Source: Promethearchaeota archaeon
GTDB lineage: Archaea > Asgardarchaeota > Lokiarchaeia > Sigyniarchaeales > SOKP01
Direction of reading: 5' to 3'
NCBI GenBank assembly: GCA_018238625.1
Contig: JABCSY010000053.1
Coordinates: forward strand, 1-27,654
DNA: 27,654 nt
The notes under the pieces are model-generated. The model ran no database searches and was not told the origin of the DNA. It saw nothing but the letters and a program-made list of their open reading frames with translations. Every line of letters starts with the position of its first letter. The stretch's first letter is position 1. The translations under genes were made by a program, and so were the position numbers. Below, one piece after another: positions 1-19,115 of the stretch.

Positions 1-2660
1 AGGTTTTCAATCTCTACTACTAATATCGTTAAGCTACCGTTAATTTCTGCGATATAACTAGAATATTGATAAACCGAGTAGTTGTTTGCACCATTAGAGA
101 CTGTCCACGTTAAAGTAAAATTGCCGTCGTCGTCAGGACTTCCCGCATTTGAGGAGATTACAAAGCTACTATCAAAAGTGGTGTTAAACGATATTGGTAC
201 TTGTCCGATTATTCTATTGCCATCGTAGGCGGTTATATTACCTGTAACGACGGGGTAATTCTCGGGAGCGATAGGTATTTGTATATCTTTTTGATAGGTG
301 TGATATGTCGTCTGATCGAATAAAATCGTTCCGAGTTGGACGCTTTCGAGCTTGACCGTCGCGTATTGTCCAAAATCGGAAAGAATAACGTTGCATAACT
401 CCGCTGAGATCGCGTTAACCCCCCCTAAGACAACTGAGGGGGAATATTGAGCGTTTATTCGCACCCGATCGTTTTTAGCCATTTCGCAAACCCAGAGAAG
501 CGCCTCTTGTTCTATTCTTTCTCTGTTGGAAGACAAATAAAACTCGTTGTAAGTATCTGAATAAATCGAGCGTATCAGACCGTGCGATTGCTCCACGTCG
601 AAGGCGATTTCTAAGTCTAAAATCTCGGATATTTTGTAGCAATAATATAGGTTTTTAACGTTTGAGTAGTTTAAGTTGTTTACCGCGAAGTTTTCGATTT
701 TTGAGGAGTTTAGAGCGAATTGATCGGTCGCTTTCAGAGCGTAAATCGCGTAGTACAGGTTTTCTAAACGGTCTTCTACTTTATCGGAGTATTTTAAGTC
801 AAAATAGAGCTCCAAGGGCGTTTCCACGACGTTTCTAACGATATAAGTCGCCAAGGCGGTTTTATCGAAACTCAAATTAGTAATAGAACCTAACCCTAGA
901 TAATCGGAAATAAGCTCCATAACTTTTATCGCGTAAAAAGAGTATTTCAGATAAATCATTCTATTTTTCCATTCCGAAGAACTATATATGTTATCGTGCA
1001 AAAAAGCTCCGAAGTTTTCTTGGTATTCTGGAGCTGGATCGAGAAATTGCGAGTCGATTACTCCTTGCAATACGGAATTAAGGTCTCGGGAAGCGGCAAA
1101 ATCGTTAAGTTTAAATATCTTCTGAAGCGAACTAAGAATCGAGTAAGTTTCTTTATGGGAGTACATCACGTTTATTTCGTCGACGTGCTTGTGATACCCC
1201 AGAGTGTAATAATCGAACGGTTTAGAGCGAAAACTCGGGACATTTGGGTTCAGGTTAGTACAGGCAGAAAAGTAGTTTCTCCCGCCCATATATAGCGCGC
1301 TACCTTCTAACAGGTCGTACAACCCTTGTATGTCTAAGTCCGCTATTTTATCGAAATAATCGTAAGAAGAGATAATAGTATGGATAAGTTCTACTGACGT
1401 GTAATCTTCCGAAAGCAACGAGTAGCCATTATACCGAGAGAAAAGTTTTATAAAGCTAGCGATTTCGTCTTTCGCGCTTAAATCCAATTCCGAAATAGCC
1501 CCCGTGTTTGCCAGCGAGCGAACTATTTGGAAAGTGTCGATTAACTCGTGGTACTTAATGGTAGTCGAGGCGTCCCAACCGCCCAAAGCGTTCCGATTGT
1601 CGATTATGAAACCAATTACCCCTGCTCTATCAATCCCCGTAAAGCCCGTTAAGTCCGACAGTTCTAGATTGATAGCAGTTGCCACTACGTTAGTGTAATT
1701 ATCGAGCCAAGCCACCGAAGATATGTCGAAGTAAAAATCTTCGGGGTGGTAAAGGTCGGTTAAGTCTTGGTGAAATCTATTTGCGTCAATAACATTAATA
1801 TAGCTACTTCCGAAAGTTTCTAAGGTTTTTACGGCGTAAAAAGAGGCGAATTGGTTCGGTTCCAACTCTAACAAAGAATCGAACAGGTAATTTTTGTCGT
1901 TAAAAAATCCAGTGTGAGAGCCTAACGATTGCAACCCGTCTATATAGCCCACGATACCGCTCCTTTCTTGGGGATACGAGCCCCAGTCAGATATAAGGAG
2001 GTCGAGCGTTGTCACCGCGTAATAAGTGTTGTCAGCAGTGGGAATTTTAAAACCATCTTCTAAGGAAACTTCGTACGGCTGACCTATAAATCCGTGTAGG
2101 TTAGGGTGGTAGCACTGCCAAATAAAATCGATGGTTTCGGCTGTATCGATTAAGCTTAAAGCGTTAAGAATGTCTAAGGAAAGCACCGCGTAGCAATTAA
2201 TCTCAAGCAACGTAGTTAAGGGTAAATACAAGCCCGGTATCGTAGAAGCCAAGTATCTTTTCGCGCTGGCGTCTAAAAATTGATGGGAGGTAGAATTGTA
2301 AAAAGACATTACGTAATTAGTAACTTCCCCTTGGTCGATTTCGCTTAGTTTTCCGATGGAGTTTAACACGTATAAAGCGTAATAAGTAGCCTGAAGCGAT
2401 GGCTGGTAAACCTGCGGATAATAGCCTTTTTGGGCGTAATTGTTGCCTTTAGCGTCGAAAATGCTTTCTATAAAGTCCAAGTTGGTCGCGTTAGCGGCGT
2501 TTAAAAGTTCGAAGTAGTTCCCACGTTCAGCGTTAAATTTTTCGGAGCCGTCTGGCAGAGCTTGCCTCGAATCGTCGTTTGCCAAGAAACAAAAGGTAAG
2601 CGCAATTGAAACGATTGCAATTAGCGCTACTTTTCTTTTTTCGTTTATTTTTAGTTGCAT
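1..2660 (-). CDS. Large secreted/surface protein (>886 aa, truncated by window edge): signal/TM segment, prenyltransferase/squalene-cyclase-like alpha-alpha repeats, then beta-rich/FN3-like domain
   Basis: Manual translation from ATG at 2660 (MQLKINEKRKVALIAIVSIALTFCFLA...) stays open to position 1. It has recurrent helical motifs (SLQATYYALYVLNSIG, TADNTYYAVTTLDLL, FASFYAVKTLETFG, KYSFYAIKVMELI, ENLYYAIYALKA) with GF/GGW turns, and ends SSNAGSPDDDGNFTLTWTVSNGANNYSVY. Absent from the ORF track because there is no stop in the window. Confidence 0.8.
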   Translation of the reverse strand, partial: MQLKINEKRKVALIAIVSIALTFCFLANDDSRQALPDGSEKFNAERGNYFELLNAANATNLDFIESIFDAKGNNYAQKGYYPQVYQPSLQATYYALYVLNSIGKLSEIDQGEVTNYVMSFYNSTSHQFLDASAKRYLASTIPGLYLPLTTLLEINCYAVLSLDILNALSLIDTAETIDFIWQCYHPNLHGFIGQPYEVSLEDGFKIPTADNTYYAVTTLDLLISDWGSYPQERSGIVGYIDGLQSLGSHTGFFNDKNYLFDSLLELEPNQFASFYAVKTLETFGSSYINVIDANRFHQDLTDLYHPEDFYFDISSVAWLDNYTNVVATAINLELSDLTGFTGIDRAGVIGFIIDNRNALGGWDASTTIKYHELIDTFQIVRSLANTGAISELDLSAKDEIASFIKLFSRYNGYSLLSEDYTSVELIHTIISSYDYFDKIADLDIQGLYDLLEGSALYMGGRNYFSACTNLNPNVPSFRSKPFDYYTLGYHKHVDEINVMYSHKETYSILSSLQKIFKLNDFAASRDLNSVLQGVIDSQFLDPAPEYQENFGAFLHDNIYSSSEWKNRMIYLKYSFYAIKVMELISDYLGLGSITNLSFDKTALATYIVRNVVETPLELYFDLKYSDKVEDRLENLYYAIYALKATDQFALNSSKIENFAVNNLNYSNVKNLYYCYKISEILDLEIAFDVEQSHGLIRSIYSDTYNEFYLSSNRERIEQEALLWVCEMAKNDRVRINAQYSPSVVLGGVNAISAELCNVILSDFGQYATVKLESVQLGTILFDQTTYHTYQKDIQIPIAPENYPVVTGNITAYDGNRIIGQVPISFNTTFDSSFVISSNAGSPDDDGNFTLTWTVSNGANNYSVYQYSSYIAEINGSLTILVVEIEN

Positions 2661-2932: not shown

Positions 2933-4240
2933 TTATCCGACCACCCCACGTGATTTTTTCTCTGATGAAAGAAATGATTCCATCAAGTAGTCTTGATTTT
3001 GAACTAATGTCCAACCTGGCCCCTTACCTTGATTTCTACTAGAAATTTGAATTAGCTTTTTATTCATTTTCCACGAATTATATAGGAGCATTCTTACCAA
3101 CATATCCAAATATCGGACATTATCATAGTTTGACTTCCAACGACGATTAATTCGATTTAAGTCGGAGAAACCTGTTTCGATCAACCATCGTCGACGATAA
3201 AATAGTGCCGTGCGGGACGCCCAAGAGCTTGTCTTGCCTCGAGGCTTCTCGGTAGTCATTATTAAGAATAAACGCTTTCGAGCATCGTCCAACGATATTC
3301 TTCCCGCTTTATAATCTCGCTTGACTCCTTGAAGAGTGAATTGATTTTTTGCTTTTATTATCACATAAACATGCCGAGAAAATCGACATTTTGCGGCCGT
3401 CTTGCTAGAAAACGTGTATTTCCGCACTCGACCATGCGTTCCCTTGAGATAATCGGTAAGGAATTGCTTGATCTTTTTATATTTCTTGGCAGGAATGATG
3501 ACCTCACCCCCCATTCCTTTAATCCTATCTAATAGTTCAGCTCTATAGAATTCTCTATCCATCAACACGAAGCCTAACTTAAATCCCAGCTTAAGTAATC
3601 TTTCAAGAAACTTTAAGATGATGGGTATTTTAGACTGACCCGTTGCCACTTGTTCCAATCCTGCATAAAGATGTGTTTCTCGGGACAATATCGAGAAGCC
3701 GAGGTAATGACGCATTTTTAGCGTTCCTTTCTGCCGGTTCGTTCCTTTGATCATGTTATCCTCTCTCTTTCCAAAATAAGGATGTTCAGTGAAATCAATG
3801 AGCACATTTACCTTCTTTGAGATGAACTCTTGTTTTAAGGCATCCAAGAGCTGCCCATCCAAGCACCCACGTAAGATCTTCTGCGCTTTCCTAAACCCAA
3901 TCTTGCGGAGATACTTGTTGACTTCTGTTTGGTGAGGTATCGCGCGCTTTCTCCGTCCATCCGCAAATATTTTTGGTCTTCCTCCTCTATGGCTCATTAG
4001 ATGGGCGTTGAGCAATTCACTCGTGTCATGAATGGACCTACCTAGTAATTCTGAGAAGAAGAACACCTTCAAAAACTCCTCCTCTTCATATCTCGAATTC
4101 TTGCCCTTTTTAAAACGCCAGGTACGAGAGGTAACTTCATCACAAAACTTTTTAAAAAAAGACAGCATATTATGATTTGAAAGAAGTGATTTTATGCCCG
4201 AGTTCCTAACCGAATTAGGAAATATATTGCCTGGTAGCAT
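2933..4240 (-). CDS. DDE transposase (ISH3/IS4-like)
   Basis: Motifs LIDFTEHPYFG (first D), LMDREFY (second D) and YRRRWLIETGF (YREK-type E). Basic composition; lies between the TIRs. Confidence 0.9.
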   Translation of the reverse strand: MLPGNIFPNSVRNSGIKSLLSNHNMLSFFKKFCDEVTSRTWRFKKGKNSRYEEEEFLKVFFFSELLGRSIHDTSELLNAHLMSHRGGRPKIFADGRRKRAIPHQTEVNKYLRKIGFRKAQKILRGCLDGQLLDALKQEFISKKVNVLIDFTEHPYFGKREDNMIKGTNRQKGTLKMRHYLGFSILSRETHLYAGLEQVATGQSKIPIILKFLERLLKLGFKLGFVLMDREFYRAELLDRIKGMGGEVIIPAKKYKKIKQFLTDYLKGTHGRVRKYTFSSKTAAKCRFSRHVYVIIKAKNQFTLQGVKRDYKAGRISLDDARKRLFLIMTTEKPRGKTSSWASRTALFYRRRWLIETGFSDLNRINRRWKSNYDNVRYLDMLVRMLLYNSWKMNKKLIQISSRNQGKGPGWTLVQNQDYLMESFLSSEKKSRGVVG

Positions 4241-4966: not shown

Positions 4967-5527
4967 TTATATTTTTATTTTTAACCAATCTTCTTTTAGG
5001 AGCGAATAAATATAATTATCCAAGTATTCTCCGTTAACATACATATCTTTCTTAATTGTAGCTTCGCGGGTAAAACCGTTTTTCTCTGCGCAACGCCACG
5101 ACCCTTTATTAACAACGAGGATAGAGGCTTTAAGTTTAAAAATGTTTAGTTCGTTAAACGCATATTCAACTAATAACCTTGTAGCTTCTTCTCCAATTTT
5201 TTGCCCCCAATAATCGGGCTCTCCGATAATCAACCCTAAATAGGCTTGTTGGTTGTACCAGTTGATATCAGCCAATTCACCAAAGCCAATCGTCTTTTTA
5301 TCTTTTTTGTGCCAAATTTCGAAACTTACTTCATTTTTAAGTTTTTTATCGGAAGGCTCTAGATATTTCTTAAGCTCTTCTACAGTACGAGGTAAAATAT
5401 TACGAGAGTAGATCCGAACTTTTGGGCGATTCTCCCATTTTGCGTATAGTTTGATATTTTCAATATTTAACGGGACGAGATCTATAGTTTCTCCTTCGAT
5501 AAAGGTAAAAATATCTTGATTCTTCAT
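4967..5527 (-). CDS. GNAT N-acetyltransferase, RimJ/RimL/SpeG-like (copy 5)
   Basis: Acetyl-CoA motif IIGEPDYWGQKIGEEA; AFNELNIFKL; GFTREATIKKDMYVNGEYLD..YSLLKEDW tail. Confidence 0.92.
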   Translation of the reverse strand: MKNQDIFTFIEGETIDLVPLNIENIKLYAKWENRPKVRIYSRNILPRTVEELKKYLEPSDKKLKNEVSFEIWHKKDKKTIGFGELADINWYNQQAYLGLIIGEPDYWGQKIGEEATRLLVEYAFNELNIFKLKASILVVNKGSWRCAEKNGFTREATIKKDMYVNGEYLDNYIYSLLKEDWLKIKI

Positions 5528-5552
5528 ATTTATATCAAATGTAAATATTATT

Positions 5553-6110
5553 TTATTTCTTTGATTTTAGCCAATCTTCTTTTAAATATCTATACATCCT
5601 CGCATCGACATACTCTCCATCGATATACATCATCTTCTTCTCAACACCTTCTAACACAAAACCAGCTTTCTCAGCCACGCTCCACGAACCTATGTTAGGC
5701 TCAAATATTCCCGCGTAAATCTTATGAAAATTAAGCTCTCCAAATCCATAATCAATTAAAAGTTTCGATGCTTCGGTTCCTAAGTTTTTATTCCAATATT
5801 TTGGCTCGCCTATTGACATAAATGTATTAGCGTGTCTATTTATCCAATCAATGCGTCCATATCCACAAGTTCCAATTGGTACTTTATCCTTTTTATGATA
5901 AATTTCAAAAGTTACAAATTCCTTTATCCCTTCCCTTGGTTCAAACCATTTTTTTGATTCATCAGCGGTAATTGGCATTGTATTACGAGCATATCTTCTT
6001 ACGCGAGGGTTGTTTATCCATTTCGCGTACAAATTAACGTGTTCTAAATTAATAGCAACCAAGTCAATGTTTTCTCCTAAAATAAAGGGAAAAACTTCTG
6101 GTTTTTCCAT
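5553..6110 (-). CDS. GNAT N-acetyltransferase, RimJ/RimL/SpeG-like (copy 4)
   Basis: IGEPKYWNKNLGTEA; GFGELNFHKI; N..S..VAEKAGFVLEG; GAGGTT SD 7 nt upstream of ATG. Confidence 0.92.
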   Translation of the reverse strand: MEKPEVFPFILGENIDLVAINLEHVNLYAKWINNPRVRRYARNTMPITADESKKWFEPREGIKEFVTFEIYHKKDKVPIGTCGYGRIDWINRHANTFMSIGEPKYWNKNLGTEASKLLIDYGFGELNFHKIYAGIFEPNIGSWSVAEKAGFVLEGVEKKMMYIDGEYVDARMYRYLKEDWLKSKK

Positions 6111-6169
6111 CTTCTATAACCTCATAAGTTTTCAGTTTAAATTATTCATTTGATTTTTTAAAATAGTAA

Positions 6170-6730
6170 TTATTTATTCGTCTGTTCCCATTCTTCTCTA
6201 AAAATACAAAAGATCAATTCATCGACATACTCTCCGTTGAAATATGTTTGATTTTTCAGTACTAATTCGAGTTTCATTCCAATTTTCTCAAGCATACGAC
6301 AAGCTCCTTCATTTGGCCTTAAAGCTGAAGCTGTAACCCTAACTAAGTTTAATTCTTCAAATCCGTATTTGATCATTAGTTTTGCTGCTTCTGTACCCAA
6401 ATTTTTACCCCATAATTCTTTTTCTCCTATTAAGACGCTTAAATCTGCTGCGTGATTTATATAATTAATATTATGGAATTCTACAAAACCAATAATTTTA
6501 TCAAGTTCTTTATTATAAATTTCAAAAGAAATATCTCTCTTTGGTCGCTCTTGTTGTTGCTCTAAACGCTTCTTTAGATCTTCAGGGGACACTGGAAAAA
6601 GATTTCGGGCGTATAATCTCGCTTTAGGGTCGTTCTTCCATCTAGCGTGGATCTTTACATTTTCAGAATTAATTGGGAGAAGTTCTATGCGTTCCCCCTC
6701 AATAAATCTTATTTGTGTATTTTTTTCTAT
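6170..6730 (-). CDS. GNAT N-acetyltransferase, RimJ/RimL/SpeG-like (copy 3); frame extends to a probable ATA start at 6730
   Basis: The ORF track starts at GTG 6592, but the frame is open upstream: (I/M)EKNTQIRFIEGERIELLPINSENVKIHARWKNDPKARLYARN, which aligns with the paralog N-termini. An in-frame TAA lies two codons above the ATA and GGTGAG is 6 nt upstream. This gives 186 aa, like the paralogs. Confidence 0.85.
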   Translation of the reverse strand: MEKNTQIRFIEGERIELLPINSENVKIHARWKNDPKARLYARNLFPVSPEDLKKRLEQQQERPKRDISFEIYNKELDKIIGFVEFHNINYINHAADLSVLIGEKELWGKNLGTEAAKLMIKYGFEELNLVRVTASALRPNEGACRMLEKIGMKLELVLKNQTYFNGEYVDELIFCIFREEWEQTNK

Positions 6731-6758
6731 AATTTACTCACCAATCGTTTGCTTAATA

Positions 6759-7356
6759 TTAATCGTCTTTCATTTTCCAATCTCTTTTTAAAAGCGAAAA
6801 TCTATGATTATCGTGATATTTTCCATCAATATATATTGTTTCTTTTATAATTGCTTCTTTTTCAAATCCCAATTTCTCAGCTGCGCGAAGAGATCTTTTA
6901 TTTGGGCTAAAGATTCCCGCATGAATTTTATGTAAATTCAATTCGGTAAAACCGTATTTAATCACTAGTGCACAAGCTTCACCGGCTATACCCTTTCCCC
7001 AATGTTCGGGTTCCCCGATCAATGCAAAAAGATTAGCGTTCCTACTACCCAATTGATCTCATCTAACCCCACACTACCAATTGGCCGTTTTTCTTGCTTA
7101 TGAAAAATCATAAAATTTGCAACATCCCTAATATGTCTGTCTGGTGAATGTTCGAACCTTTTTTTACATCTTCAAGAGTCTTTGGCCATATATTTCGAGA
7201 ATAATGACGAACTTTTGGATTATTAATCCATTTACAAAATAAATTTACCCATTTCGAATTTCCAGCGACTAAATCGATCCTTTCTCCTTCTATAAAAGGA
7301 AATACATCATTTTCTTCTTCCTTACCTTCTTTATCTTTTTTTTCTTCTGTCATCAT
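6759..7356 (-). pseudogene. GNAT N-acetyltransferase (copy 2) interrupted by two 1-nt deletions (pseudogene or homopolymer sequencing error)
   Basis: ORFs 7108-7356 and 6759-7052, plus the intervening frame FEHSPDRHIRDVANFMIFHKQEKRPIGSVGLDEINW, align continuously with 7389-7985. Breaks are at the T7 run 7159-7165 and the C3 run 7048-7050. Confidence 0.85.
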
Positions 7357-7388
7357 TAATCCTTCAATTATTAATTGTTAATCATCTT

Positions 7389-7985
7389 TCATTCTTTCAT
7401 TTTCCAATCTCTTTTAAACAACGCGAATTTGTGTATGTCGTGATATTGCCCGTCAACGTACATTTCTTCTTTTAAAACGCCTTCTTTTTCAAAACCTAAT
7501 TTTTCAGCTGCGCGAAGAGACCTACTGTTTGGTGTAAAAACTCCAGCAAAAATTTTATGAAAATTCAATTCAGTAAAACCGTAATTGATCATGAGATTAG
7601 AAGCTTCACCAGCTATTCCCTTCCCCCAATATTCAGGTTCTCCGATTGTTAAAAATATGTTAGCATTTCTACTAACCCAATTAATGTGATTAAATCCTAT
7701 ACTACCAATTGGCCGTTTTGCGTGCTTATGATAAACGGTAAAGACAATAAATTCCCTCATTTGTCTGTCTGGTGTGGGTTCGAACCATTTCTTTACTTCT
7801 TCGAGAGTCTTTGGCCACATATTTCGAGAATAATGACGAACTTTTGGATCGTTCATCCATTTACAAACTAAATTAGCCCATTTAGAGTTACCAGCAACTA
7901 AATCAATGGTTTCTCCTTCTATGAAAGGAAATACGTCATCTTCTTCTTCTTTCTTATCTTCTTTAACTTTTTTTTCTTCAGTCAT
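7389..7985 (-). CDS. GNAT N-acetyltransferase, RimJ/RimL/SpeG-like (copy 1), with charged N-terminal extension
   Basis: TIGEPEYWGKGIAGEA; GFTELNFHKI; NSRSLRAAEKLGFEKEG; N-terminus MTEEKKVKEDKKEEEDD. Confidence 0.93.
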   Translation of the reverse strand: MTEEKKVKEDKKEEEDDVFPFIEGETIDLVAGNSKWANLVCKWMNDPKVRHYSRNMWPKTLEEVKKWFEPTPDRQMREFIVFTVYHKHAKRPIGSIGFNHINWVSRNANIFLTIGEPEYWGKGIAGEASNLMINYGFTELNFHKIFAGVFTPNSRSLRAAEKLGFEKEGVLKEEMYVDGQYHDIHKFALFKRDWKMKE

Positions 7986-9879: not shown

Positions 9880-11439
9880 TTAATATTTTAAGTTTCTCGT
9901 GTTAACTATAGTGCTTAACATGAGCTTAAGGTAATCGTGTATTTTTTCTCTGTAATCAGAACCAATTTTTAGAAATATTATTGATACAACCTTTTCTTCT
10001 AAATCTTTGTCAATAACAAACTCTTCCATTAATTGGGACCAGTTATTGTCGTCAGAAACTCGAACTCCAACGATAATTGTTCGTTTTTTTCTAATTTTTT
10101 GAATAATTTGAATTAAAATCTCCTTCCAATTAGGATCGATGTGCTCTTTGTCTCTAGCGTCGAATATACAAAAAGCACCATCGGAATTAGAAAGGTTAAA
10201 TTTATCGTAAAGAAAACTACTTAAGATCACTCCGTTCTTATAAGTGTATAATTTTTCTTCGCTACTATCTTTTATCTTAGAAAATTCGCCTAGTTTTTCG
10301 ATATCTAATATGGTATGAAATCCAGGGTTCCAACTCATGCTATAAGTAATAAAAGTTAATTCTAATATAATCAACTCTTTTAAAGCGAAATCAATCGCTT
10401 CTATTAGATCATCCTTGATTCTATCCTTTTCTTGTCTTTTTCTTTTTACTATGTAATGATAAGCAATTAATTCAAACGCGTCTTTAACGTTATTTCCCGT
10501 AAGTGCGCTCGTTTCTATATAGGAAGAGGCATTTTCAGAAAATGATTTGGCTAAAACTTCTCCTTCTTCGGTGGATATTAATCGTTGTTCGCTCAAATCG
10601 CTTTTGTTACCAATGATCACTATGGGAATATTTTTTTCTTCGATAAGGTTAGATATTTCCTTATGCCAACTCTTTACATTTTCAAACGATTCTCTTCTAG
10701 TAAGATCAAAAACGATAAAAGCAGCTTCTGCACCCGTGTAATAAATCTTGCGAAAGCGTTTGAAATATTGTTGTGCCCCAATATCCCACAACTGAACACC
10801 AATCTCATTTCCTTCAAAATCGAAATTATGTGCTAAAATATTTAAGCCAATAGTGGCTCTATAATCGTGTGTAAATTTGCGCTCTACAAATTGACGAATC
10901 AATGATGTTTTTCCAACCTCATGATCACCAACAATTACGAATTTAAATGCATAATTACCGCATTCACTGAATTCCGATTGACATATTGATGCTTTTAACC
11001 TTTCATGTCTTTCAGCTTCATTATCAAAATCGGGAATTGCCAATTGTATTAAATCGCCCGTTTGGGCGTTCAGTATTTGAGCTGATTTCTCAGCTAGAAA
11101 GTAAGTATAAGGCGCAACCTTTTCTACTGAAGCCATACTGTTAAAGATTATACTTAATATTCTCTCTTCGTCAATAGTAACAAAAAGTAAACGGTATTCG
11201 TCTGTGTCAAACGCAGCAGTCCCAAATTTTTTGAAAGAGAATTCATTTCGGATCCTTTGTAAGAGCGGGTTTATAAGTGTAGTCAAAACAGATACAATTT
11301 CGAGATCAATATCTTTTCTTTTTTCTCCCGCAATAACGAATCCTTCGACATCAGAGACGATAATCGCTTCAACTTCTGTAAATCTTTCTAAAAAATTACT
11401 TAATATCTCGTTAAAAAGTTGATTTCTGTTAATAATCAA
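9880..11439 (-). CDS. Roadblock/LC7-like domain + Rab-like small GTPase + C-terminal degenerate GTPase-like domain (paralog A)
   Basis: N-terminal VEAIIVSDVEGFVIAG (roadblock/MglB-type); G1 GDHEVGKTS, G2 YRATIG, G3 WDIGAQ, G4 NKSD, G5 ETSAL; C-terminal SDGAFCIFDARD...IIVGVRVSD. The TTG start aligns with the paralog's ATG. Confidence 0.9.
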   Translation of the reverse strand: MIINRNQLFNEILSNFLERFTEVEAIIVSDVEGFVIAGEKRKDIDLEIVSVLTTLINPLLQRIRNEFSFKKFGTAAFDTDEYRLLFVTIDEERILSIIFNSMASVEKVAPYTYFLAEKSAQILNAQTGDLIQLAIPDFDNEAERHERLKASICQSEFSECGNYAFKFVIVGDHEVGKTSLIRQFVERKFTHDYRATIGLNILAHNFDFEGNEIGVQLWDIGAQQYFKRFRKIYYTGAEAAFIVFDLTRRESFENVKSWHKEISNLIEEKNIPIVIIGNKSDLSEQRLISTEEGEVLAKSFSENASSYIETSALTGNNVKDAFELIAYHYIVKRKRQEKDRIKDDLIEAIDFALKELIILELTFITYSMSWNPGFHTILDIEKLGEFSKIKDSSEEKLYTYKNGVILSSFLYDKFNLSNSDGAFCIFDARDKEHIDPNWKEILIQIIQKIRKKRTIIVGVRVSDDNNWSQLMEEFVIDKDLEEKVVSIIFLKIGSDYREKIHDYLKLMLSTIVNTRNLKY

Positions 11440-11608
11440 TAGAATCTACCTTCAAATATGAACAATATCAAACGGAATTTGTACTTATCATAAATATAAT
11501 ATAACTTATTTTTAAAAGTAGCTATTTCAATTTATAAAATTATAAATAAAATTTGTGTCCCAACATCCCAGAGTGATAAAATTTCAATTAGAAATAATGG
11601 AGGATATT

Positions 11609-13171
11609 TTAATTTATGATGGTGTTAAACATTACTTCAAGTTGGTCGTAGATTTCCAAGCGATACTCGAAACCAATCTTAAAAAATAAAAGAGATATCA
11701 TCCTCTTTTCTAGATATTCGTTAACATTAAATTCTTCCATAATATTTGACCAATCACTCTGCTCAGATACTCTTACACCTATTAGGGCAACTTTGTTTTC
11801 GCCAAGGTTTTTGATTATATTGACAACAACGTCTTTCCACTTTGGTTCGATATGCTTCCTATCTCGAGCGTCAAATATGACGAAAACGCCATCAGAATCT
11901 GTTACATCTAAATTATCAAAAAGAAAGTTCTTTATTAATAATCCATTGGAATATTCGTATAATCTTTTTTCTTTGTCGTCAATTACTTTCTCACACTCAC
12001 ACAATTTATTTACTTCGTTTAAGATTTGTAGCCCTGGACTCCAAAACGGACTATCAGTTACAAACGAGACAATTAATTTTCCTTTCTTATTTAAAATCGA
12101 CTTAATTTGATCCATTAAATTTTCTTCTAGCTTTTGTTCTTCTCTTTCTTTACTCTTCATTATATAATGATATGCTATCAAGCTGAACGCGTCTTCTATG
12201 TTTTCGCCTGTTAAAGCGCTGGTTTCAATATATGAGATATCTCCACCAGAATAATCCTTTGAAAGTTCATCAACTAAAGCAACACCGTTTTTAAATTTAA
12301 CGATTCGCTGATCCGACAAATCTACCTTATTTCCTACGATTGTGATTGGAATTTTCTTATTTCCTATAAATTCATCTAGCTCTTTATACCAAATTTTCAC
12401 ATTGTCGAACGATTCTCGATTACATACATCAAAAACTATAAAAGCAGCTTGTGCACCTACGTAGTAAGTCTTTCTGAAGCGTTTAAAGTATTCTTGGGCG
12501 CCTACATCCCAAAGCGATAAAGATACCTCGTTTCCGTAAAATTTAATTGAGTGAGATAAGACATTAAGCCCTAAAGTTGCCCGATAATCGAGAGTAAATC
12601 TATTTTCTACAAACCTTCTTATAATAGAAGTTTTTCCCACTGAACTATCGCCAATTATTATAAATTTAAATTTGTAAATCCCTCCGGAATCTAGGCGGAG
12701 TTGGTATATTTGTTCTTTTATTCTACTTGTACTATCAGAAGTATTAGATTCTATTTCAAAATTCGGTACATTAACTTGAATTAAATCGCCTTCGCTTGCA
12801 AATATGATTTGAGCAGTTTTTTCTGCTAGAAAATAAGCGTATGGGCTAATTTTATCAACAGAAGCTAAAACATCTAAAACTATGCTAAGAGTTACATTTT
12901 CGTCTATAGAAATAAAGAGCAATCGGTTTTTTTCGGTGTCAAAACTAGCTGATCCAAACTTTTGAAAGGCAAATTCTTCCCGCATTCTTTCTAAAAGTGG
13001 ATTTATTAATGCTGTTAATACAGATACTAATTCCATATCAGTGCTTGCTTTTTTTTGGCCAGCTATAATAAATCCTTCTCGATCTGATACGATTAGAGCT
13101 TCTACATCGTCATTAACGAGCAGAAAGTTAGTAAGAAGTTCATTAAAAAGTCGTTTTTTGTTTAAAGACAT
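11609..13171 (-). CDS. Roadblock/LC7-like domain + Rab-like small GTPase + C-terminal degenerate GTPase-like domain (paralog B)
   Basis: VEALIVSDREGFIIAG; GDSSVGKTS, YRATLG, WDVGAQ, NKVD, ETSAL; C-terminal SDGVFVIFDARD...ALIGVRVSE. Colinear with 9880-11439. Confidence 0.9.
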   Translation of the reverse strand: MSLNKKRLFNELLTNFLLVNDDVEALIVSDREGFIIAGQKKASTDMELVSVLTALINPLLERMREEFAFQKFGSASFDTEKNRLLFISIDENVTLSIVLDVLASVDKISPYAYFLAEKTAQIIFASEGDLIQVNVPNFEIESNTSDSTSRIKEQIYQLRLDSGGIYKFKFIIIGDSSVGKTSIIRRFVENRFTLDYRATLGLNVLSHSIKFYGNEVSLSLWDVGAQEYFKRFRKTYYVGAQAAFIVFDVCNRESFDNVKIWYKELDEFIGNKKIPITIVGNKVDLSDQRIVKFKNGVALVDELSKDYSGGDISYIETSALTGENIEDAFSLIAYHYIMKSKEREEQKLEENLMDQIKSILNKKGKLIVSFVTDSPFWSPGLQILNEVNKLCECEKVIDDKEKRLYEYSNGLLIKNFLFDNLDVTDSDGVFVIFDARDRKHIEPKWKDVVVNIIKNLGENKVALIGVRVSEQSDWSNIMEEFNVNEYLEKRMISLLFFKIGFEYRLEIYDQLEVMFNTIIN

Positions 13172-13282: not shown

Positions 13283-13858
13283 ATGGCTACTTGTATTATT
13301 TGTCATCTGGATATTATTGAAGGTGTAGATTCTTTCCAAGAGTGCCCTAACGGACATCCTACACATACGGATTGCTTGAAAGAGTGGCTACTTCACGCTT
13401 CAAACTGTCCTTTATGTAGAGAACCGTACTCGATTCACGTTATTGAAGGCTTTAAAGATTTTATTCAGCAAAGAGAGCATGAAAAACACGAAGCTTTAGA
13501 AAGTGAACTGAAGCAAGAAAAAGTCAAACAAATGGGGAAAATTGCTGAAAAAATTATATTTCTGAAATTTGTTGAATCTATTGAGGTATTAATGGTTGCA
13601 AAAGAATACGAGTACGCTTTATCAAGGTTAGATTTACACGATAACGATACCACTTCAAATCAAAAAAACCAAAACCTTTTGTTTTTAAAGGGAAAGATTA
13701 ATTACTTGAGAGGTCGTTACGATATGGCAATTAGCTTATTAACTAAATTAGTAAAAGAAAAATACGACTATCCAGAAGGGTTTTTATTCCTTGGAAAATC
13801 CTATGAAGCCTTAGGTTTAAAAGATCAAGCCAAATGGGCGTTTGATAGAGTTAATTAG
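13283..13858 (+). CDS. RING-H2 finger + helical linker + TPR protein (putative E3 ubiquitin ligase)
   Basis: C-x2-C-x13-C-x3-H-x2-H-x2-C-x10-C-x2-C (CIIC...CPNGHPTHTDCLKEWL...CPLC) with the conserved Trp. C-terminal TPR-like LFLKGKINYLRGRYDMAI and FLFLGKSYEALGLKDQA. Confidence 0.88.
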   Translation: MATCIICHLDIIEGVDSFQECPNGHPTHTDCLKEWLLHASNCPLCREPYSIHVIEGFKDFIQQREHEKHEALESELKQEKVKQMGKIAEKIIFLKFVESIEVLMVAKEYEYALSRLDLHDNDTTSNQKNQNLLFLKGKINYLRGRYDMAISLLTKLVKEKYDYPEGFLFLGKSYEALGLKDQAKWAFDRVN

Positions 13859-15435: not shown

Positions 15436-15474
15436 TTTAAAATTAAATTTGAATTTGAATTCAATGTGAATAAA

Positions 15475-17154
15475 ATGATGATACAGCAAAAAAAATCGAA
15501 ATTTTTTTTATTAACAATAAGTCTATCAGTACTTTTATTATTTGTAGGAGTAGGCGTTAATATCAATAGTTATGTCTTGGATAATAAATCATTAGACGAA
15601 GATGTTTTAACTCAACCTAAAGAATCGTGGACATATACTACCCGAATTCTTAGGCCAAATGAGGACGTATCGAATAATGGTTTTCAAAGTAGTCCAATAT
15701 TTAATAAAATTAATGAAGTTGTAACATACCCTAGTTCCGGTGGAGATAGTAGTTATATTATAGGCGATGTTACAACAGATAGTTGTGAAGTTAAAATGAG
15801 TACAACTTACCAGCTTGAAGGACAGAGTTTTACAAGCATTAAAATTTATGCTCGGGGAAGAAAAGGAGGTACTCCTGGAGATACAACTTTGAATGTAAAA
15901 TTTGACTGGAGATTAGAAGGGGGAAGCTTCTCAACACCCAAATCAGTTAATTTTGATGAAGATAGTTTCCACTGGCTTAGTACTATTTCATGGGATAATT
16001 TAGATTTATCTAAAAATGAATTAGATCATTTACAAATTAGAATACGCATTGGAGGAATTGATGAGATTGATAAAGAACAACATATATCGGTTGTATACGC
16101 TGAAATTACCGTTAAAAGCAACGAAGATCCGACTGTCAATGTAATCTCTCCAAACGGAGGCGAAATCGTTCAAGACACTGCTTTGATAAATTGGAGCTAT
16201 TCTGATCCTGAAGGTCAAACTCTTACTTATGAATTATCTTATAGCATAATCCCATCTGGGACGTTTCACACTATTGTTTCTGGGTTAGTAAATGTGAACA
16301 CCTACGAATGGGACTTAAGTGGATTTACTGAAAGGTGTGATAGTGTTAGAATTATGGTAGAAGCTTGGGATGGAAACGGGGGTTATGATTACGATCATAG
16401 CGATGATTATTTCGAAATATTTGTTAACCACGATCCCATCGTAAATCTAACCTCTCCAAATGGAGGTGAGGTTCTACAAGAGAGCTCGTTGATAACATGG
16501 GATTGCTCTGATACTGATGGAGATACATTAACATTTAATATATCTTATGATATTGCGGGTGCGGGATGGACGCCTATAGTTTCAGGATTAGTAGATGAAA
16601 CATCCTACGAATGGGATTTAAGCGGATTTCCTCAAAGATCTGATCAAGTTTTAGTTAAAATTGAAGTAGACGACGGATATGAGGGTTTTAATGAAGATGT
16701 TAGCGATAATTATTTCGAAATTTTTTTTAACCACGATCCTACAATAACCTTAACCTCTCCAAACGGAGGTGAAACTCTAAAAGGAAACTCAACGATAGCA
16801 TGGAATTGCTCTGATTTTGATGGGGATACGTTAACATTCAACATTTCGTACAATATCGCAGGGACTATATGGCAACCTATAGCATCTGGATTAGTGAATG
16901 TAAGTTCTTACGAATGGGATCTAGGTGGATTTGCTTTTATTTACGATCAAGTTAGAGTAAAAGTACAAGTACGCGATGAATATAATGGATACGCAGAGGA
17001 TGTTAGCGACAATCCATTTGTAATTAATGCGGCAATAGAAGAATTAGAAACGATACCTTCCTTTAACATATTCATTGTTGGAGCTAGTGGATGTATCGCG
17101 GGTATTTTTCTTTGTGCTAAGGGAACAAAAAAAAACGTAAGAAATTCACTTTAG
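15475..17154 (+). CDS. Cell-surface protein: signal peptide, beta-sandwich head, three ~101-aa SPNGGE Ig-like repeats, Loki-CTERM-like anchor
   Basis: Hydrophobic N-terminus; SPNGGE at 16147, 16453, 16756; C-terminal IPSF + hydrophobic stretch + basic tail. ATG 15475 is preferred over GTG 15466 because it aligns with the paralog's start (CAATG + 8 nt). Confidence 0.85.
   Translation: MMIQQKKSKFFLLTISLSVLLLFVGVGVNINSYVLDNKSLDEDVLTQPKESWTYTTRILRPNEDVSNNGFQSSPIFNKINEVVTYPSSGGDSSYIIGDVTTDSCEVKMSTTYQLEGQSFTSIKIYARGRKGGTPGDTTLNVKFDWRLEGGSFSTPKSVNFDEDSFHWLSTISWDNLDLSKNELDHLQIRIRIGGIDEIDKEQHISVVYAEITVKSNEDPTVNVISPNGGEIVQDTALINWSYSDPEGQTLTYELSYSIIPSGTFHTIVSGLVNVNTYEWDLSGFTERCDSVRIMVEAWDGNGGYDYDHSDDYFEIFVNHDPIVNLTSPNGGEVLQESSLITWDCSDTDGDTLTFNISYDIAGAGWTPIVSGLVDETSYEWDLSGFPQRSDQVLVKIEVDDGYEGFNEDVSDNYFEIFFNHDPTITLTSPNGGETLKGNSTIAWNCSDFDGDTLTFNISYNIAGTIWQPIASGLVNVSSYEWDLGGFAFIYDQVRVKVQVRDEYNGYAEDVSDNPFVINAAIEELETIPSFNIFIVGASGCIAGIFLCAKGTKKNVRNSL
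16120..17030 (+). repeat. Three intragenic ~303-bp tandem repeats (N.DP.V.L.SPNGGE...W..SD.DG.TLT...YEWDL.GF...D.SD.YF.I)
   Basis: Periods of 306 and 303 nt between SPNGGE codons; two further copies at about 18012-18615 in the next gene. Boundaries approximate. Confidence 0.9.
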
Positions 17155-17273
17155 CCTAAATATTTTTTATTTCTTTTTCATTTTAAAGAGGAAATCTGTA
17201 GAAAGCATTACTCTTTTAAATTATAACTAATAGATTTAACCTAAATTGCCTTGTGAAAATTCATCATGGCATT

Positions 17274-17328
17274 GAATTACCAGATCGATTTAAATAAGAC
17301 TTTTAAATATACAAAATGTATAGTTAAC
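17274..17328 (+). promoter_or_regulatory. Conserved upstream element copy 2
   Basis: GAATTACCAGATCGATTTAAATAAGACTTTTAAATATACAAAATGTATAGTTAAC; contains the palindrome TATACA-aaa-TGTATA. Confidence 0.7.
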
Positions 17329-17363
17329 AGAAATACTAATTATTTGAATTCAATGGGATCGAA

Positions 17364-19115
17364 TTGAAGTCACGACAAAAAAAGGCAATATTCGTTTTAT
17401 TAGCTGTAAGCTTTGGTTTTTTTTTTGGTTTAACATTTTTTATTAAAGGTGACTCAAACACTAGTAATCTCGTTTCGGAAAAAGAGAATTCAATTCAACC
17501 TGAAAATTCGTACACATATTCCACTCAAATTATTAGACCAGACGATGACCTAACAAATAGTGGTTTTACACTTGTACCAGGTGGTGGTTATTTATATACG
17601 AAAATAAATGATAATGTAAGTTCACCTGCGGCTGGAGGAGATAGTGAATATATTATTGGTGATCATGATCTAGATGATTGCGAGGTCGAGATGAGTTCTA
17701 TAACTTTAAATCCAGGTCAAGTTGTCACAGGAATAGAAATATATGCAAGGGGGCAAGTTGGAGGTGGTCCTGGAGAAGTTACTATTCGTACAGGTTTTAG
17801 ATGGAGAATTGGGACAGGAACCTATTCCTCATCTAACTCAGTTCAATTTGATGAAAGTAGTTTCTACTGGCTTAGTGCAAGTCCATGGCCGGATTTAGAA
17901 TTATCACAATCTGAATTAAATGATTTAAGGATTGAAATAAGTATTACAGGAATTGTAGGTGTAAAAACACAAGAAATTTCAGTAATGTATGTGGAACTTA
18001 CTATTAGAAGTAATGAAAACCCTAATGTTAATTTAACTTCTCCGAATGGAGGTGAAATTCTACAAGAAACTGCGAATATAACTTGGAATTATTCTGATCC
18101 TGAAGGTGATACCATAACATTTAACTTATTATATGACATTGCGGGGGCAGGGTGGACTCCAATAGTTTCTGGATTAGTAAATGAGACTTCTTACGAATGG
18201 GATCTGACGGGTTTTACTCAAAGATACGACCAAGTTAGGGTAAAAATAGAGGCGGACGATGGAAATGGGGGATACGATGAGGATATTAGCGATGATTATT
18301 TCGATATATTTGTTAACCATGATCCCGTAGTAAACTTAATATCTCCAAATGGGGGTGAGATTCTACAAGGTAATACATCAATAACATGGAATTTTTTTGA
18401 TGCTGACGATGATCTTTTATCATTTAATATTTCGTACAATATAGCTGGAACAGGATGGACCCTTATTGTTTCTGGATTAGTAAATAAGAGTTCATATCAA
18501 TGGGACTTAAGTAATTTCACCCAAAGATACGATCAAGTTTTAATCAAATTAGAAGTAAATGACGGGTATAATGGATATAGCGAGGATATTAGCGGAGACT
18601 ATTTTGTAATAAATATAATAGAGCAAAAGGGAGAGTTTGATCCTATTATTCTGATTTTGATCTTTGGAGCAAGCGTAGGAATTTCAGGTATTTTTATTGG
18701 AAATAATATTGTAAAAAGAAAAAGGAAGAAAAGCATTAAAAACAGAGATTCATCAATTCCATATAGGGTTAAACAAGTAGATAGTGTTGGTAGTAATCAT
18801 AAAAAGATTATAGTAGAAGCTGATCTTTTAATTAGAAGAACTAGCAATGGTAATAGTAAAGATTTAATTTCTAATCTGTTTTCTAAAAATTCTAACCTTC
18901 TAGATGAAGTAGTAGGGAAAGAGGGCTATGAAGTAGTAAAAATATTAGGAAAATTCCGCATTACAACATTATCTGATGATTTTTGGGATAAAGTAGAGCA
19001 ATTTGAGTGGGAAAATAATGAGAAAGAAGAATTCATAAAAGATATGCTTGGATTGCCCCCTGATTGTCGTGAACAGTTTATTGATGATATGTTAAGGCAA
19101 TCAAAGAGGCGATAA
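17364..19115 (+). CDS. Single-pass surface protein paralogous to the upstream gene: same head domain, two SPNGGE repeats, TM helix and ~130-aa cytoplasmic tail
   Basis: SPNGGE at 18039 and 18342; TM PIILILIFGASVGISGIFIG followed by KRKRKK; acidic helical end TTLSDDFWDKVEQFEW...EFIKDMLGLPPDCREQFIDDML. TTG start. Confidence 0.85.
   Translation: MKSRQKKAIFVLLAVSFGFFFGLTFFIKGDSNTSNLVSEKENSIQPENSYTYSTQIIRPDDDLTNSGFTLVPGGGYLYTKINDNVSSPAAGGDSEYIIGDHDLDDCEVEMSSITLNPGQVVTGIEIYARGQVGGGPGEVTIRTGFRWRIGTGTYSSSNSVQFDESSFYWLSASPWPDLELSQSELNDLRIEISITGIVGVKTQEISVMYVELTIRSNENPNVNLTSPNGGEILQETANITWNYSDPEGDTITFNLLYDIAGAGWTPIVSGLVNETSYEWDLTGFTQRYDQVRVKIEADDGNGGYDEDISDDYFDIFVNHDPVVNLISPNGGEILQGNTSITWNFFDADDDLLSFNISYNIAGTGWTLIVSGLVNKSSYQWDLSNFTQRYDQVLIKLEVNDGYNGYSEDISGDYFVINIIEQKGEFDPIILILIFGASVGISGIFIGNNIVKRKRKKSIKNRDSSIPYRVKQVDSVGSNHKKIIVEADLLIRRTSNGNSKDLISNLFSKNSNLLDEVVGKEGYEVVKILGKFRITTLSDDFWDKVEQFEWENNEKEEFIKDMLGLPPDCREQFIDDMLRQSKRR

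Follow-up and report, generated by a model that had tools for sequence, protein, structure and literature searches.

The window analysed here is a stretch of 27,654 nucleotides (positions 1 to 27,654 of the forward strand of contig JABCSY010000053.1, GenBank assembly GCA_018238625.1) from an Asgard genome of 4.29 Mb in 201 contigs (Promethearchaeota archaeon; Lokiarchaeia, Sigyniarchaeales, SOKP01), and it is A+T-rich (~28–43% G+C per kb). Its minus strand carries two tandem genes, A and B, each coding for a chain of three domains: an N-terminal roadblock domain resembling MglB, a Rab-like GTPase domain (G domain), and a C-terminal domain that is predicted to be a pseudoGTPase, with the shape of a GTPase and without its nucleotide motifs. 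The genes are arranged as follows:

9880–11439, minus strand: gene B (P0002), 519 aa, TTG start; paralogue of A with the same three domains
11440–11608, minus strand: A–B spacer, 169 bp, A+T-rich, from the stop of A to the TTG start of B
11609–13171, minus strand: gene A (P0001), 520 aa, ATG start; roadblock, Rab-like GTPase and predicted pseudoGTPase

The two proteins are 51% identical from end to end (BLASTP, 518 aligned positions, 7 gaps) and share a roadblock motif (VEALIVSDREGFIIAG in A, VEAIIVSDVEGFVIAG in B) as well as two C-terminal motifs (SDGVFVIFD and ALIGVRVS in A, SDGAFCIFD and IIVGVRVS in B). A first-pass annotation, made from the letters of the window, had described a colinear pair of ~520-aa paralogues with these motifs, and both open reading frames (ORFs) were recovered exactly where it had placed them. 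A homologue search with A returned 783 matches; the 120 listed are ~472–525 aa long (full-length ~521 aa), show 63–90% identity and are called, where a name is given, 'GTP-binding protein' or 'Rab family GTPase' of Loki-, Prometh-, Hod-, Thor- or Hermodarchaeota. Ratios of nonsynonymous to synonymous substitution rates (dN/dS) were 0.02–0.26 across the roadblock, GTPase and pseudoGTPase domains wherever computable, and all three are under purifying selection. Because homologues are numerous and dN/dS is low, we regard the A and B reading frames as not due to chance. Among 24 runs none was listed as RNA; the one labelled RNA-Seq (X20) is probably DNA, and its pieces are 90–99% alike. The family alignment, the motif census and the tree described below comprise 70 members.

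Domain architecture of the A and B proteins

The domains of the two proteins, all encoded on the minus strand, are delimited as follows:

12803–13171: A roadblock, aa 1–123, from the structure model and Foldseek; MglB-like, alpha-beta-beta-alpha-beta-beta-beta-alpha
12677–12802: A linker between roadblock and GTPase, aa 124–165, from the alignment of 70 members
12161–12676: A GTPase, aa 166–337, Pfam Ras, Rab-like; G1 GDSSVGKT (174–181), G2 T199, G3 WDVGAQ (221–226), G4 NKVD (281–284), G5 SAL (318–320)
12506–12523: A G3 motif site, WDVGAQ
11612–12160: A C-terminus, aa 338–520, with a connecting helix at ~339–363 and the predicted pseudoGTPase at ~364–520 (157 aa)
11071–11439: B roadblock, aa 1–123; family roadblock hidden Markov model (HMM) over aa 1–139, E 2.2e-65; boundary at aa 123 transferred from the A model through the A/B alignment
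10450–10953: B GTPase, aa 163–330; Pfam Ras over aa 166–326; G1 GDHEVGKT, G3 WDIGAQ, G4 NKSD, G5 SAL
10772–10789: B G3 motif site, WDIGAQ
9883–10449: B C-terminus, aa 331–519, with connecting helix and predicted pseudoGTPase; family HMM over aa 331–513, E 4e-73

The C-terminal region of A (aa 338–520, 183 aa) was modelled by AlphaFold2 (AF2) from 70 sequences with a predicted local distance difference test score (pLDDT) of 92.4 and a predicted template modelling score (pTM) of 0.88. The modelled elements run in the order helix, beta1, alpha1, three strands, beta4, alpha3, beta5, alpha4, beta6, alpha5, which is the order of a small GTPase minus the switch-II helix. Foldseek gave 298 PDB matches to the model at E ≤ 1e-3, and among those listed almost all were small GTPases, led by Arf1 (3lrp, E 3.5e-6, TM 0.60) and the Asgard HodArfR1-GDP and followed by Rab, Ras, Arl and Sar1. 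When the model was compared with 48,161 representative chains by VIA-align, the best match was again HodArfR1 (8oul_A, Z 13.6, root-mean-square deviation 3.3, 161/183 residues aligned), and the best five all belonged to the Arf/Sar family (Z 11.8–13.6, 151–170 aligned residues); the matches included Entamoeba Arf (Z 12.6), ARL10B (11.9), Sar1 (11.9), LokiRagM (10.8), LokiRagO (10.6) and RagD (10.3).

Sequence comparisons agree with the modelled fold over part of its length. The family profile matched Rnd1 (2rex_B) with E 1.2e-4 over beta4-alpha3-beta5, placing SDSDGVFCIFDAR...LIGIRVS on SDSDAVLLCFDIS...LIGCKTD; hhalign of the pseudoGTPase against the family's own G domain gave P 2.8e-4 (probability 41%) with a 23-residue gap at the would-be beta3 and switch II; and the pseudoGTPase HMM matched a 230-aa small GTPase of another Asgard genome with E 1e-6. 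All three comparisons align beta4-alpha3-beta5 in register and end at the G4 position. The nucleotide motifs themselves are gone: GxxxxGK[ST] was found in 0/70 members, GK[ST] anywhere in the domain in 1/70 and NKxD at the G4 position in 0/70, with a chance [NT]KxD elsewhere in the C-terminal domain of three of the 70. Searches of Pfam and NCBIfam with the C-terminal regions of A and B returned nothing relevant. The domain is nonetheless conserved, with dN/dS of 0.03–0.26 in the 13 orthologue pairs, out of 14, for which it was computable (the same range as in the other two domains), with G465 invariant and with W377, P379, G410, D427, F433, D434, R436, W445 and R467 near-invariant. The first-pass annotation had taken this region, from strand signatures, for a GTPase fold that had lost its P-loop and NKxD; the modelled fold and the loss of motifs in 70/70 members bear that out, and we describe the C-terminus as a conserved predicted pseudoGTPase of Arf/Rag-type fold, which would belong to class I by eukaryotic usage.

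The pseudoGTPase domain was not found alone or in any other fusion among 1.84 billion representatives, where the 44 matches were fragments or full-length members (508–543 aa) of the same family, one 894-aa protein (P0129) and two low-complexity chance matches. P0129 consists of the full three-domain protein and a ~350-aa coiled-coil/tetratricopeptide repeat (TPR) extension, and could be a genuine fusion or the product of faulty gene calling. In the ESM Atlas, the homologue P0016 returned its own archaeal GTPase clusters only.

Of the three domains, the pseudoGTPase appears from the alignments to be the most diverged between A and B. In 20 same-genome pairs of A and B, the roadblock is 62.6% and the G domain 62.4% identical; the linker stands at 45.5%, the pseudoGTPase at 44.5% (39% for the A and B proteins of the window) and the connecting helix at 31.3%. 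The A and B clades are fixed differently at just 2/520 positions. Within the roadblock, A and B agree best over alpha2 (74%) and beta3 (84%), which we take, from MglB and LC7 structures, to be the dimer-contact elements; if they do form the contact, their conservation implies that it is unspecialised, a state more in keeping with promiscuous homo- and heterodimerisation than with obligate pairing.

The middle domain matches Pfam Ras (PF00071; A, E 4.6e-44 and 150.3 bits; B, E 5e-47 and 159.9 bits; cut-off 21.6), and 60/60 of the PDB sequence matches listed are Rab or Ypt proteins, the best being Ypt1 (6.5e-33), with a Thorarchaeota Rab at 1.2e-31. Pfam Gtr1_RagA (PF04670) also matched A, with 23.9 bits (cut-off 22) versus 150 bits for Ras over the same stretch, and B was not among its matches listed. 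By sequence, then, the domain is best described as Rab-like rather than Rag-like or MglA-like. All 70 members have G1, the switch-I Thr, NKxD and SA[LKA]. The first-pass annotation had seen a Rab-like GTPase with G1–G5, and that reading stands for the Rab-like character and for G1, G2, G4 and G5 but not for G3, in which the canonical DxxG glycine is replaced by alanine: the motif reads D-x-G-A-Q in 64/70 members, with Ser in three and Gly in three, and the catalytic Gln is kept in 70/70.

In the source genome 71 ORFs match the family G-domain HMM, and a motif scan saw DxGAQ in none of those other than A and B (its regular expression missed A and B themselves); the genome's three other roadblock–GTPase fusions read WDLAGQ, YDLAGQ and WDIGGQ. 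The genes of a sister family (f29, below) keep WDFGGQ, and the alanine is therefore placed within the main family. The GTP-driven switch of Ras (G60A) and of G-alpha subunits is impaired by Ala for Gly at this site, and members of the family may be slow or atypical switches. Cys is found within the last six residues in 0/70 members, and the chain extends well beyond the G domain. Because no C-terminal Cys prenylation motif was found, the sequences give no sign of a Rab-type lipid anchor, and the protein is predicted to be soluble.

The N-terminal domain is recognized by fold more readily than by sequence. Pfam Robl_LC7 (PF03259) scored 16.1 bits on whole A and 13.1 bits on whole B (E 0.079), against a cut-off of 23; the same family matched 37/68 members at E ≤ 1 (best 3.8e-5), and the family roadblock profile found the Asgard roadblock protein 7yh1_D in the PDB with E 0.029. 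The AF2 model of A aa 1–150 (68 sequences) reached pLDDT 82.9 and pTM 0.80, and DSSP assigned to it H3-19, E23-30, E35-40, H48-72, E74-78, E82-88, E93-100 and H105-123, the last being an extra C-terminal helix such as occurs in longer roadblock proteins. Foldseek matched the model to 90 PDB entries at E ≤ 1e-3, with nothing but roadblock proteins among those listed: the best is Thermus MglB (1j3w_C, E 1.1e-6, TM 0.64/0.71), and other leading matches are MglB 3t1r and 3t12 (E ~1e-6; 3t12 is MglB with MglA), then Asgard roadblock homodimers, LAMTOR and MglC. The model thus supports an MglB-like roadblock domain, by fold and not by the Pfam sequence threshold, where the first-pass annotation had seen a roadblock-like N-terminus; its proposal that the domains be compared separately by Foldseek and profile was followed, and the comparisons returned a GTPase-like fold at one end and a roadblock-like fold at the other. 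In the linker that follows, P136 is invariant and Q132, F138, K152 and Q157 are nearly invariant; it was modelled with pLDDT 85–88 at aa 121–140 and <50 at aa 141–150.

Distribution, gene history and neighbouring genes

A first survey, with the C-terminal domain of a single sequence as query, covered 201 genomes of the phylum and found the family in 41, all of GTDB family f1 (40/40 and the source genome), and in 0/160 genomes of 26 other families. A second survey, with the family profile, covered 400 genomes and found it in 133: in 124/134 genomes of f1 and the source genome, in the sister families f28 (1/1) and f29 (3/4), in 0/14 of f2, in 3/31 of f5 at marginal E ~1e-4 and in 1/22 of f22. 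The f22 genome (G226:C309; L047, L052) carries an A/B-like pair with f1-typical scores on a 4.3-kb contig in a bin that is 9% contaminated, and because the pair is f1-like, the contig short and the bin contaminated, we attribute the occurrence, with probability, to faulty binning. A single Asgard order holds the whole family, which is near-universal in f1 and single-copy in f28 and f29, whose four carrier genomes each have one full ORF of roadblock, G domain and pseudoGTPase (522–549 aa). Copy number and arrangement in the 41 carriers of the first survey were as follows:

19 genomes: two genes less than 2 kb apart on the same strand
5 genomes: two genes on one contig and strand, 4–8 kb apart
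8 genomes: at least two copies on different contigs, several of them fragmentary
9 genomes: one copy

In a quick IQ-TREE analysis, the A-type genes of genera g1 and g2 form one clade (21 rows; Shimodaira–Hasegawa-like approximate likelihood ratio test, SH-aLRT, 93) and their B-type genes another (22 rows, SH-aLRT 89); since both clades span g1 and g2, the duplication predates the divergence of the two. An independent tandem duplication is seen in genus g4, and two g2 genomes (G008 and G171) have a B-type gene only. Because the f28 and f29 genomes hold single full-length ORFs and 9/41 carriers are single-copy, the sequences indicate that the ancestral state was one gene, presumably working as a homodimer. 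The A/B pair would be a later duplication that permits mixed dimers without requiring them.

Some g1 genomes carry a third tripartite paralogue of ~545 aa at another locus (L030–L033, L037). It is flanked by conserved proteins of 417 aa and 704–739 aa, representatives of which (417 and 704 aa) have no Pfam match. In three genomes (G057, G071 and G162) A and B are separated by two or three unrelated genes. In two genomes of the same genus (L020:4726-7610 and L040:2340-5224) a 180-aa Ras-family GTPase and Pfam-less proteins of 377 and 358 aa stand between the two.

Next to gene A in the window, and divergent from it, lies a gene for a RING protein:

13283–13858, plus strand: RING-H2 protein with a TPR-like tail (Pfam zf-RING_2, E 1.4e-7)

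A RING homologue adjoins the tripartite gene in 29/40 loci; wherever the locus extends far enough, ThiD-ThiN lies on the far side of the RING gene. The full order is ThiC, ThiD-ThiN, RING, the divergent tripartite gene or genes, and a convergent isopropylmalate/isocitrate dehydrogenase gene, and it is kept in single-copy loci. We considered the RING gene as a functional partner and rejected it: all these loci come from one family, in which ThiD-ThiN, ThiC and the dehydrogenase are conserved neighbours as well. Because the case is one of synteny alone and other neighbours are conserved too, the adjacency is not evidence of function. The TPR tail of P0129 was likewise considered as a Rosetta-stone link to the RING/TPR neighbour and dropped, as BLASTP gave generic TPR similarity (best E 0.79).

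Other genes of the window lie further away. Four GNAT acetyltransferase paralogues (186, 185, 140 and 198 aa) stand in a row at 4967–7985 on the minus strand, and GNAT genes recur near the GTPase pair in related loci. A DDE transposase gene at 2933–4240 (minus strand; PF01609, E 8.3e-12) lies in a stretch with a G+C content of 0.41 versus ~0.28–0.37 in the flanking kilobases. An ORF at 3–2660 (minus strand) that runs off the window edge codes for at least 886 aa with a prenyltransferase alpha-alpha toroid domain (PF00432, E 2.5e-11); because the tripartite GTPases have no C-terminal Cys, it implies no link to them. At the opposite edge, an ORF at 22508–27652 (plus strand) that also runs off the window codes for at least 1715 aa with a gingipain-type C25 peptidase, a propeptide and a CARDB domain, and two proteins encoded at 15466–19115 have weak matches to Big_7 (bacterial Ig) domains.

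Relation to known systems and interpretation

Roadblock–GTPase fusions of Asgard archaea are already in print (PMC10933270, section 7; PMC4917890, Box 1). For the strain MK-D1 (Ca. Prometheoarchaeum), the text of PMC10933270 counts 74 small GTPases, of which 26 occur together with roadblock or longin domains; describes roadblock–GTPase and GTPase–roadblock architectures, with '?' marking domains of unknown function in the legend to its Fig. 1f; and reports one operonic Rag-like pair, predicted to be a heterodimer. The roadblock–GTPase proteins of Tran et al. from MK-D1 resemble A and B in that a small GTPase of a Loki-type Asgard archaeon follows an N-terminal roadblock in the same chain, and the source genome itself holds three plain two-domain fusions of this kind; A and B differ from the MK-D1 proteins in adding a 157-aa GTPase-shaped domain without nucleotide motifs and in having Ala for Gly in G3. 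Neither the three-domain architecture nor the third domain was found in the searchable texts, and the supplementary figures of PMC10933270, which fall outside that scope, may draw a roadblock–GTPase–'?' protein; the architecture is also absent from the available passages of PMC12962969. No literature on archaeal pseudoGTPases was found by title and abstract, and a literature search for 'LokiRag' returned no papers. The architecture had been called uncharacterized in the first-pass annotation, which is too broad for the roadblock–GTPase fusion and holds, in the searchable texts, for the pseudoGTPase domain. What is new here is an Asgard roadblock–GTPase fusion that carries an archaeal predicted pseudoGTPase; the roadblock–GTPase fusion itself was already known.

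Three further systems invite comparison. MglB/MglA of Thermus and Myxococcus (1j3w, 3t12, 6izw) share the MglB-like fold and the pairing of a roadblock with a Ras-superfamily GTPase, whereas A and B unite roadblock and GTPase in a single chain, have a Rab-like GTPase and add a pseudoGTPase. The Rag/Gtr proteins, with LokiRagO and LokiRagM (8yl2, 9m28), also have a GTPase and a roadblock in each chain and paralogous genes side by side, and the pseudoGTPase model of the present family matches LokiRagM, LokiRagO and RagD at the Z scores given above. In Rag/Gtr, however, an N-terminal G domain precedes a C-terminal roadblock, whereas the order here is roadblock, G domain, pseudoGTPase; the active G domain of A and B is Rab-like, and single-copy relatives of A and B exist. 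In eukaryotes, p190RhoGAP combines pseudoGTPase domains with an active GTP-binding domain in the same chain too. PseudoGTPases described there include pG1 and pG2 of p190RhoGAP (PMC5593906) and AAGAB (PMC12490416), and, as far as the accessible parts of these sources go, the class-I members are similar to the present domain in combining a GTPase fold without nucleotide motifs with other signalling domains in the chain. The domain of A and B differs in being archaeal, in following a Rab-like domain directly and in occurring with a roadblock, and it is likened to the eukaryotic ones by features, not by sequence.

We read A and B as lineage-specific Asgard three-domain paralogues in which a roadblock-dimerised, Rab-like switch would carry a pseudoGTPase as a binding module, and we put the probability of this reading at roughly 0.55. 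By analogy with solved roadblock proteins, the roadblock domains would dimerise to give A:A, B:B or mixed A:B assemblies; the dimer platform and the conserved linker may hold or regulate the fused Rab-like domain in the fashion of MglB or Ragulator; and the pseudoGTPase may be a binding module that works without nucleotide, determines the choice of partner and differs between A and B. A number of observations count against this reading. The roadblock domain stays below the Pfam gathering score, even when the A domain is scored alone (19.3 bits versus 23), and with alanine at G3 in 64/70 members the middle domain is perhaps no conventional switch. As for the C-terminal domain, unrelated alpha/beta folds match its model too (in VIA-align, a TIR domain at Z 10.4 and response regulators at Z 8.6–9.0), its identity to GTPases is at most 15% (6–15%), and a Pfam search listed 25 families at E ≤ 1, with no GTPase family matched by any of the 70 members.

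The last three points are also what one would expect if the C-terminal domain were an unrelated three-layer alpha/beta domain of flavodoxin- or Rossmann-like type that resembles a GTPase by convergence, and to them may be added FMN reductase and flavodoxin among the structural matches and an hhalign probability against the family's own G domain of just 41%. However, VIA-align ranks five Arf/Sar proteins first, ahead of the unrelated folds, three in-register sequence comparisons point to real GTPases (E 1.2e-4, P 2.8e-4, E 1e-6), and the secondary-structure elements follow one another as in a small GTPase that lacks the switch-II helix; we consider convergence very unlikely. The opposite proposal, that the domain has kept the ability to bind a nucleotide or some other small ligand in a non-canonical pocket and makes the protein a two-site GTPase like EngA/Der or Miro, draws on the positions of the most conserved residues, at the former P-loop (W377, P379), G4 (G465, R467) and G5 (F496), which imply that the old pocket region is under constraint. 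We find it hardly credible, given Walker A in 0/70 members, GK[ST] in 1/70, NKxD at G4 in 0/70 and the deletion of the switch-II segment relative to the G domain. An alternative with somewhat more in its favour is that each protein is a self-contained module of the MglB/MglA type, whose roadblock dimer docks on the GTPase of its own or the partner chain as a GTPase-activating protein (GAP) or exchange regulator and makes it an autonomous timer. The structures nearest to the N-terminus are indeed MglB, including MglB with MglA (3t12, 6izw; E 1e-6 to 2e-5); the extra helix H105-123 of longer roadblock proteins is present; the roadblock–GTPase linker is strongly conserved, with P136 invariant; and the unit recurs in three more fusions of the source genome that lack the third domain. 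Yet the G domain resembles Rab and not MglA; among MK-D1 GTPases the activating arginine is confined to the MglA-like ones, according to the reply to reviewers of Tran et al. (PMC10933270); roadblock proteins act, as the same source notes, also as scaffolds or in exchange and not just as GAPs; and the pseudoGTPase is left unexplained. We hold such a module to be a tentative alternative, improbable on balance.

The first-pass annotation had favoured a heterodimeric switch, and its strictest form, in which A and B work only as an A:B pair joined through their roadblock domains with divided roles, like RagA/RagC or Gtr1/Gtr2, is unlikely because 9/41 carriers hold one copy. The synteny survey that had been proposed came out on both sides of the question. 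The duplicate has been kept since before the g1/g2 split (SH-aLRT 93 and 89), at least two copies occur in 32/41 carriers, 19/41 are tight tandems on one strand (<2 kb) with five more on the same contig and strand, A lies upstream of B in 17/17 tight g1/g2 tandems (16 loci and the window), no A without B was seen on contigs long enough to tell, and both genes are under purifying selection. Against an obligate pair stand the nine single-copy carriers and the one full-length gene in each f28 and f29 genome, the two genomes with a B-type gene only, the independent duplication in g4, the unrelated genes between A and B in three genomes, the Rab-like G domain and a domain order opposite to that of Rag. 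The proteins themselves add that the A and B clades are fixed differently at just two positions and that, with alpha2 and beta3 so well conserved, no interface specialised for hetero-pairing is apparent. A complex prediction with the roadblocks of A (1–140) and B (1–137) and the G domain of A (141–340), run without controls, gave ipSAE values of 0.20, 0.31 and 0.28 against a mark of 0.32, which speaks neither for nor against docking or dimerisation. A facultative A/B dimer is possible. A more doubtful idea transfers the asymmetry from the pair to the single chain: each chain could be an intramolecular analogue of the Rag heterodimer, with a switchable G domain and a permanently 'off-shaped' one (GDP-Arf/Rag-like) on a roadblock platform. 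If that were true, the family would supply the first pseudoGTPase from archaea and a prokaryotic instance of the asymmetric logic of two G domains known from eukaryotic Rag/Ragulator signalling, and the A/B duplication would diversify the 'dead' half for different partners.

We return to the reading of A and B as roadblock-dimerised Rab-like switches with a pseudoGTPase binding module. The expanded repertoire of small GTPases and of roadblock and longin domains in Asgard archaea has been seen as foreshadowing membrane and nutrient signalling in eukaryotes. Pseudo-versions of the GTPase fold are represented in the literature found, as judged from titles and abstracts, by eukaryotes and by one abstract that mentions bacteria, and the family described here suggests that predicted pseudoGTPase domains arose in archaea too. 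Its members would combine a regulator, a switch and a possible effector-like module in a single compact, soluble chain, and the system bears on how roadblock domains act on Rab-type GTPases, on what alanine in DxxG does to a natural switch and on what pseudoGTPases bind.

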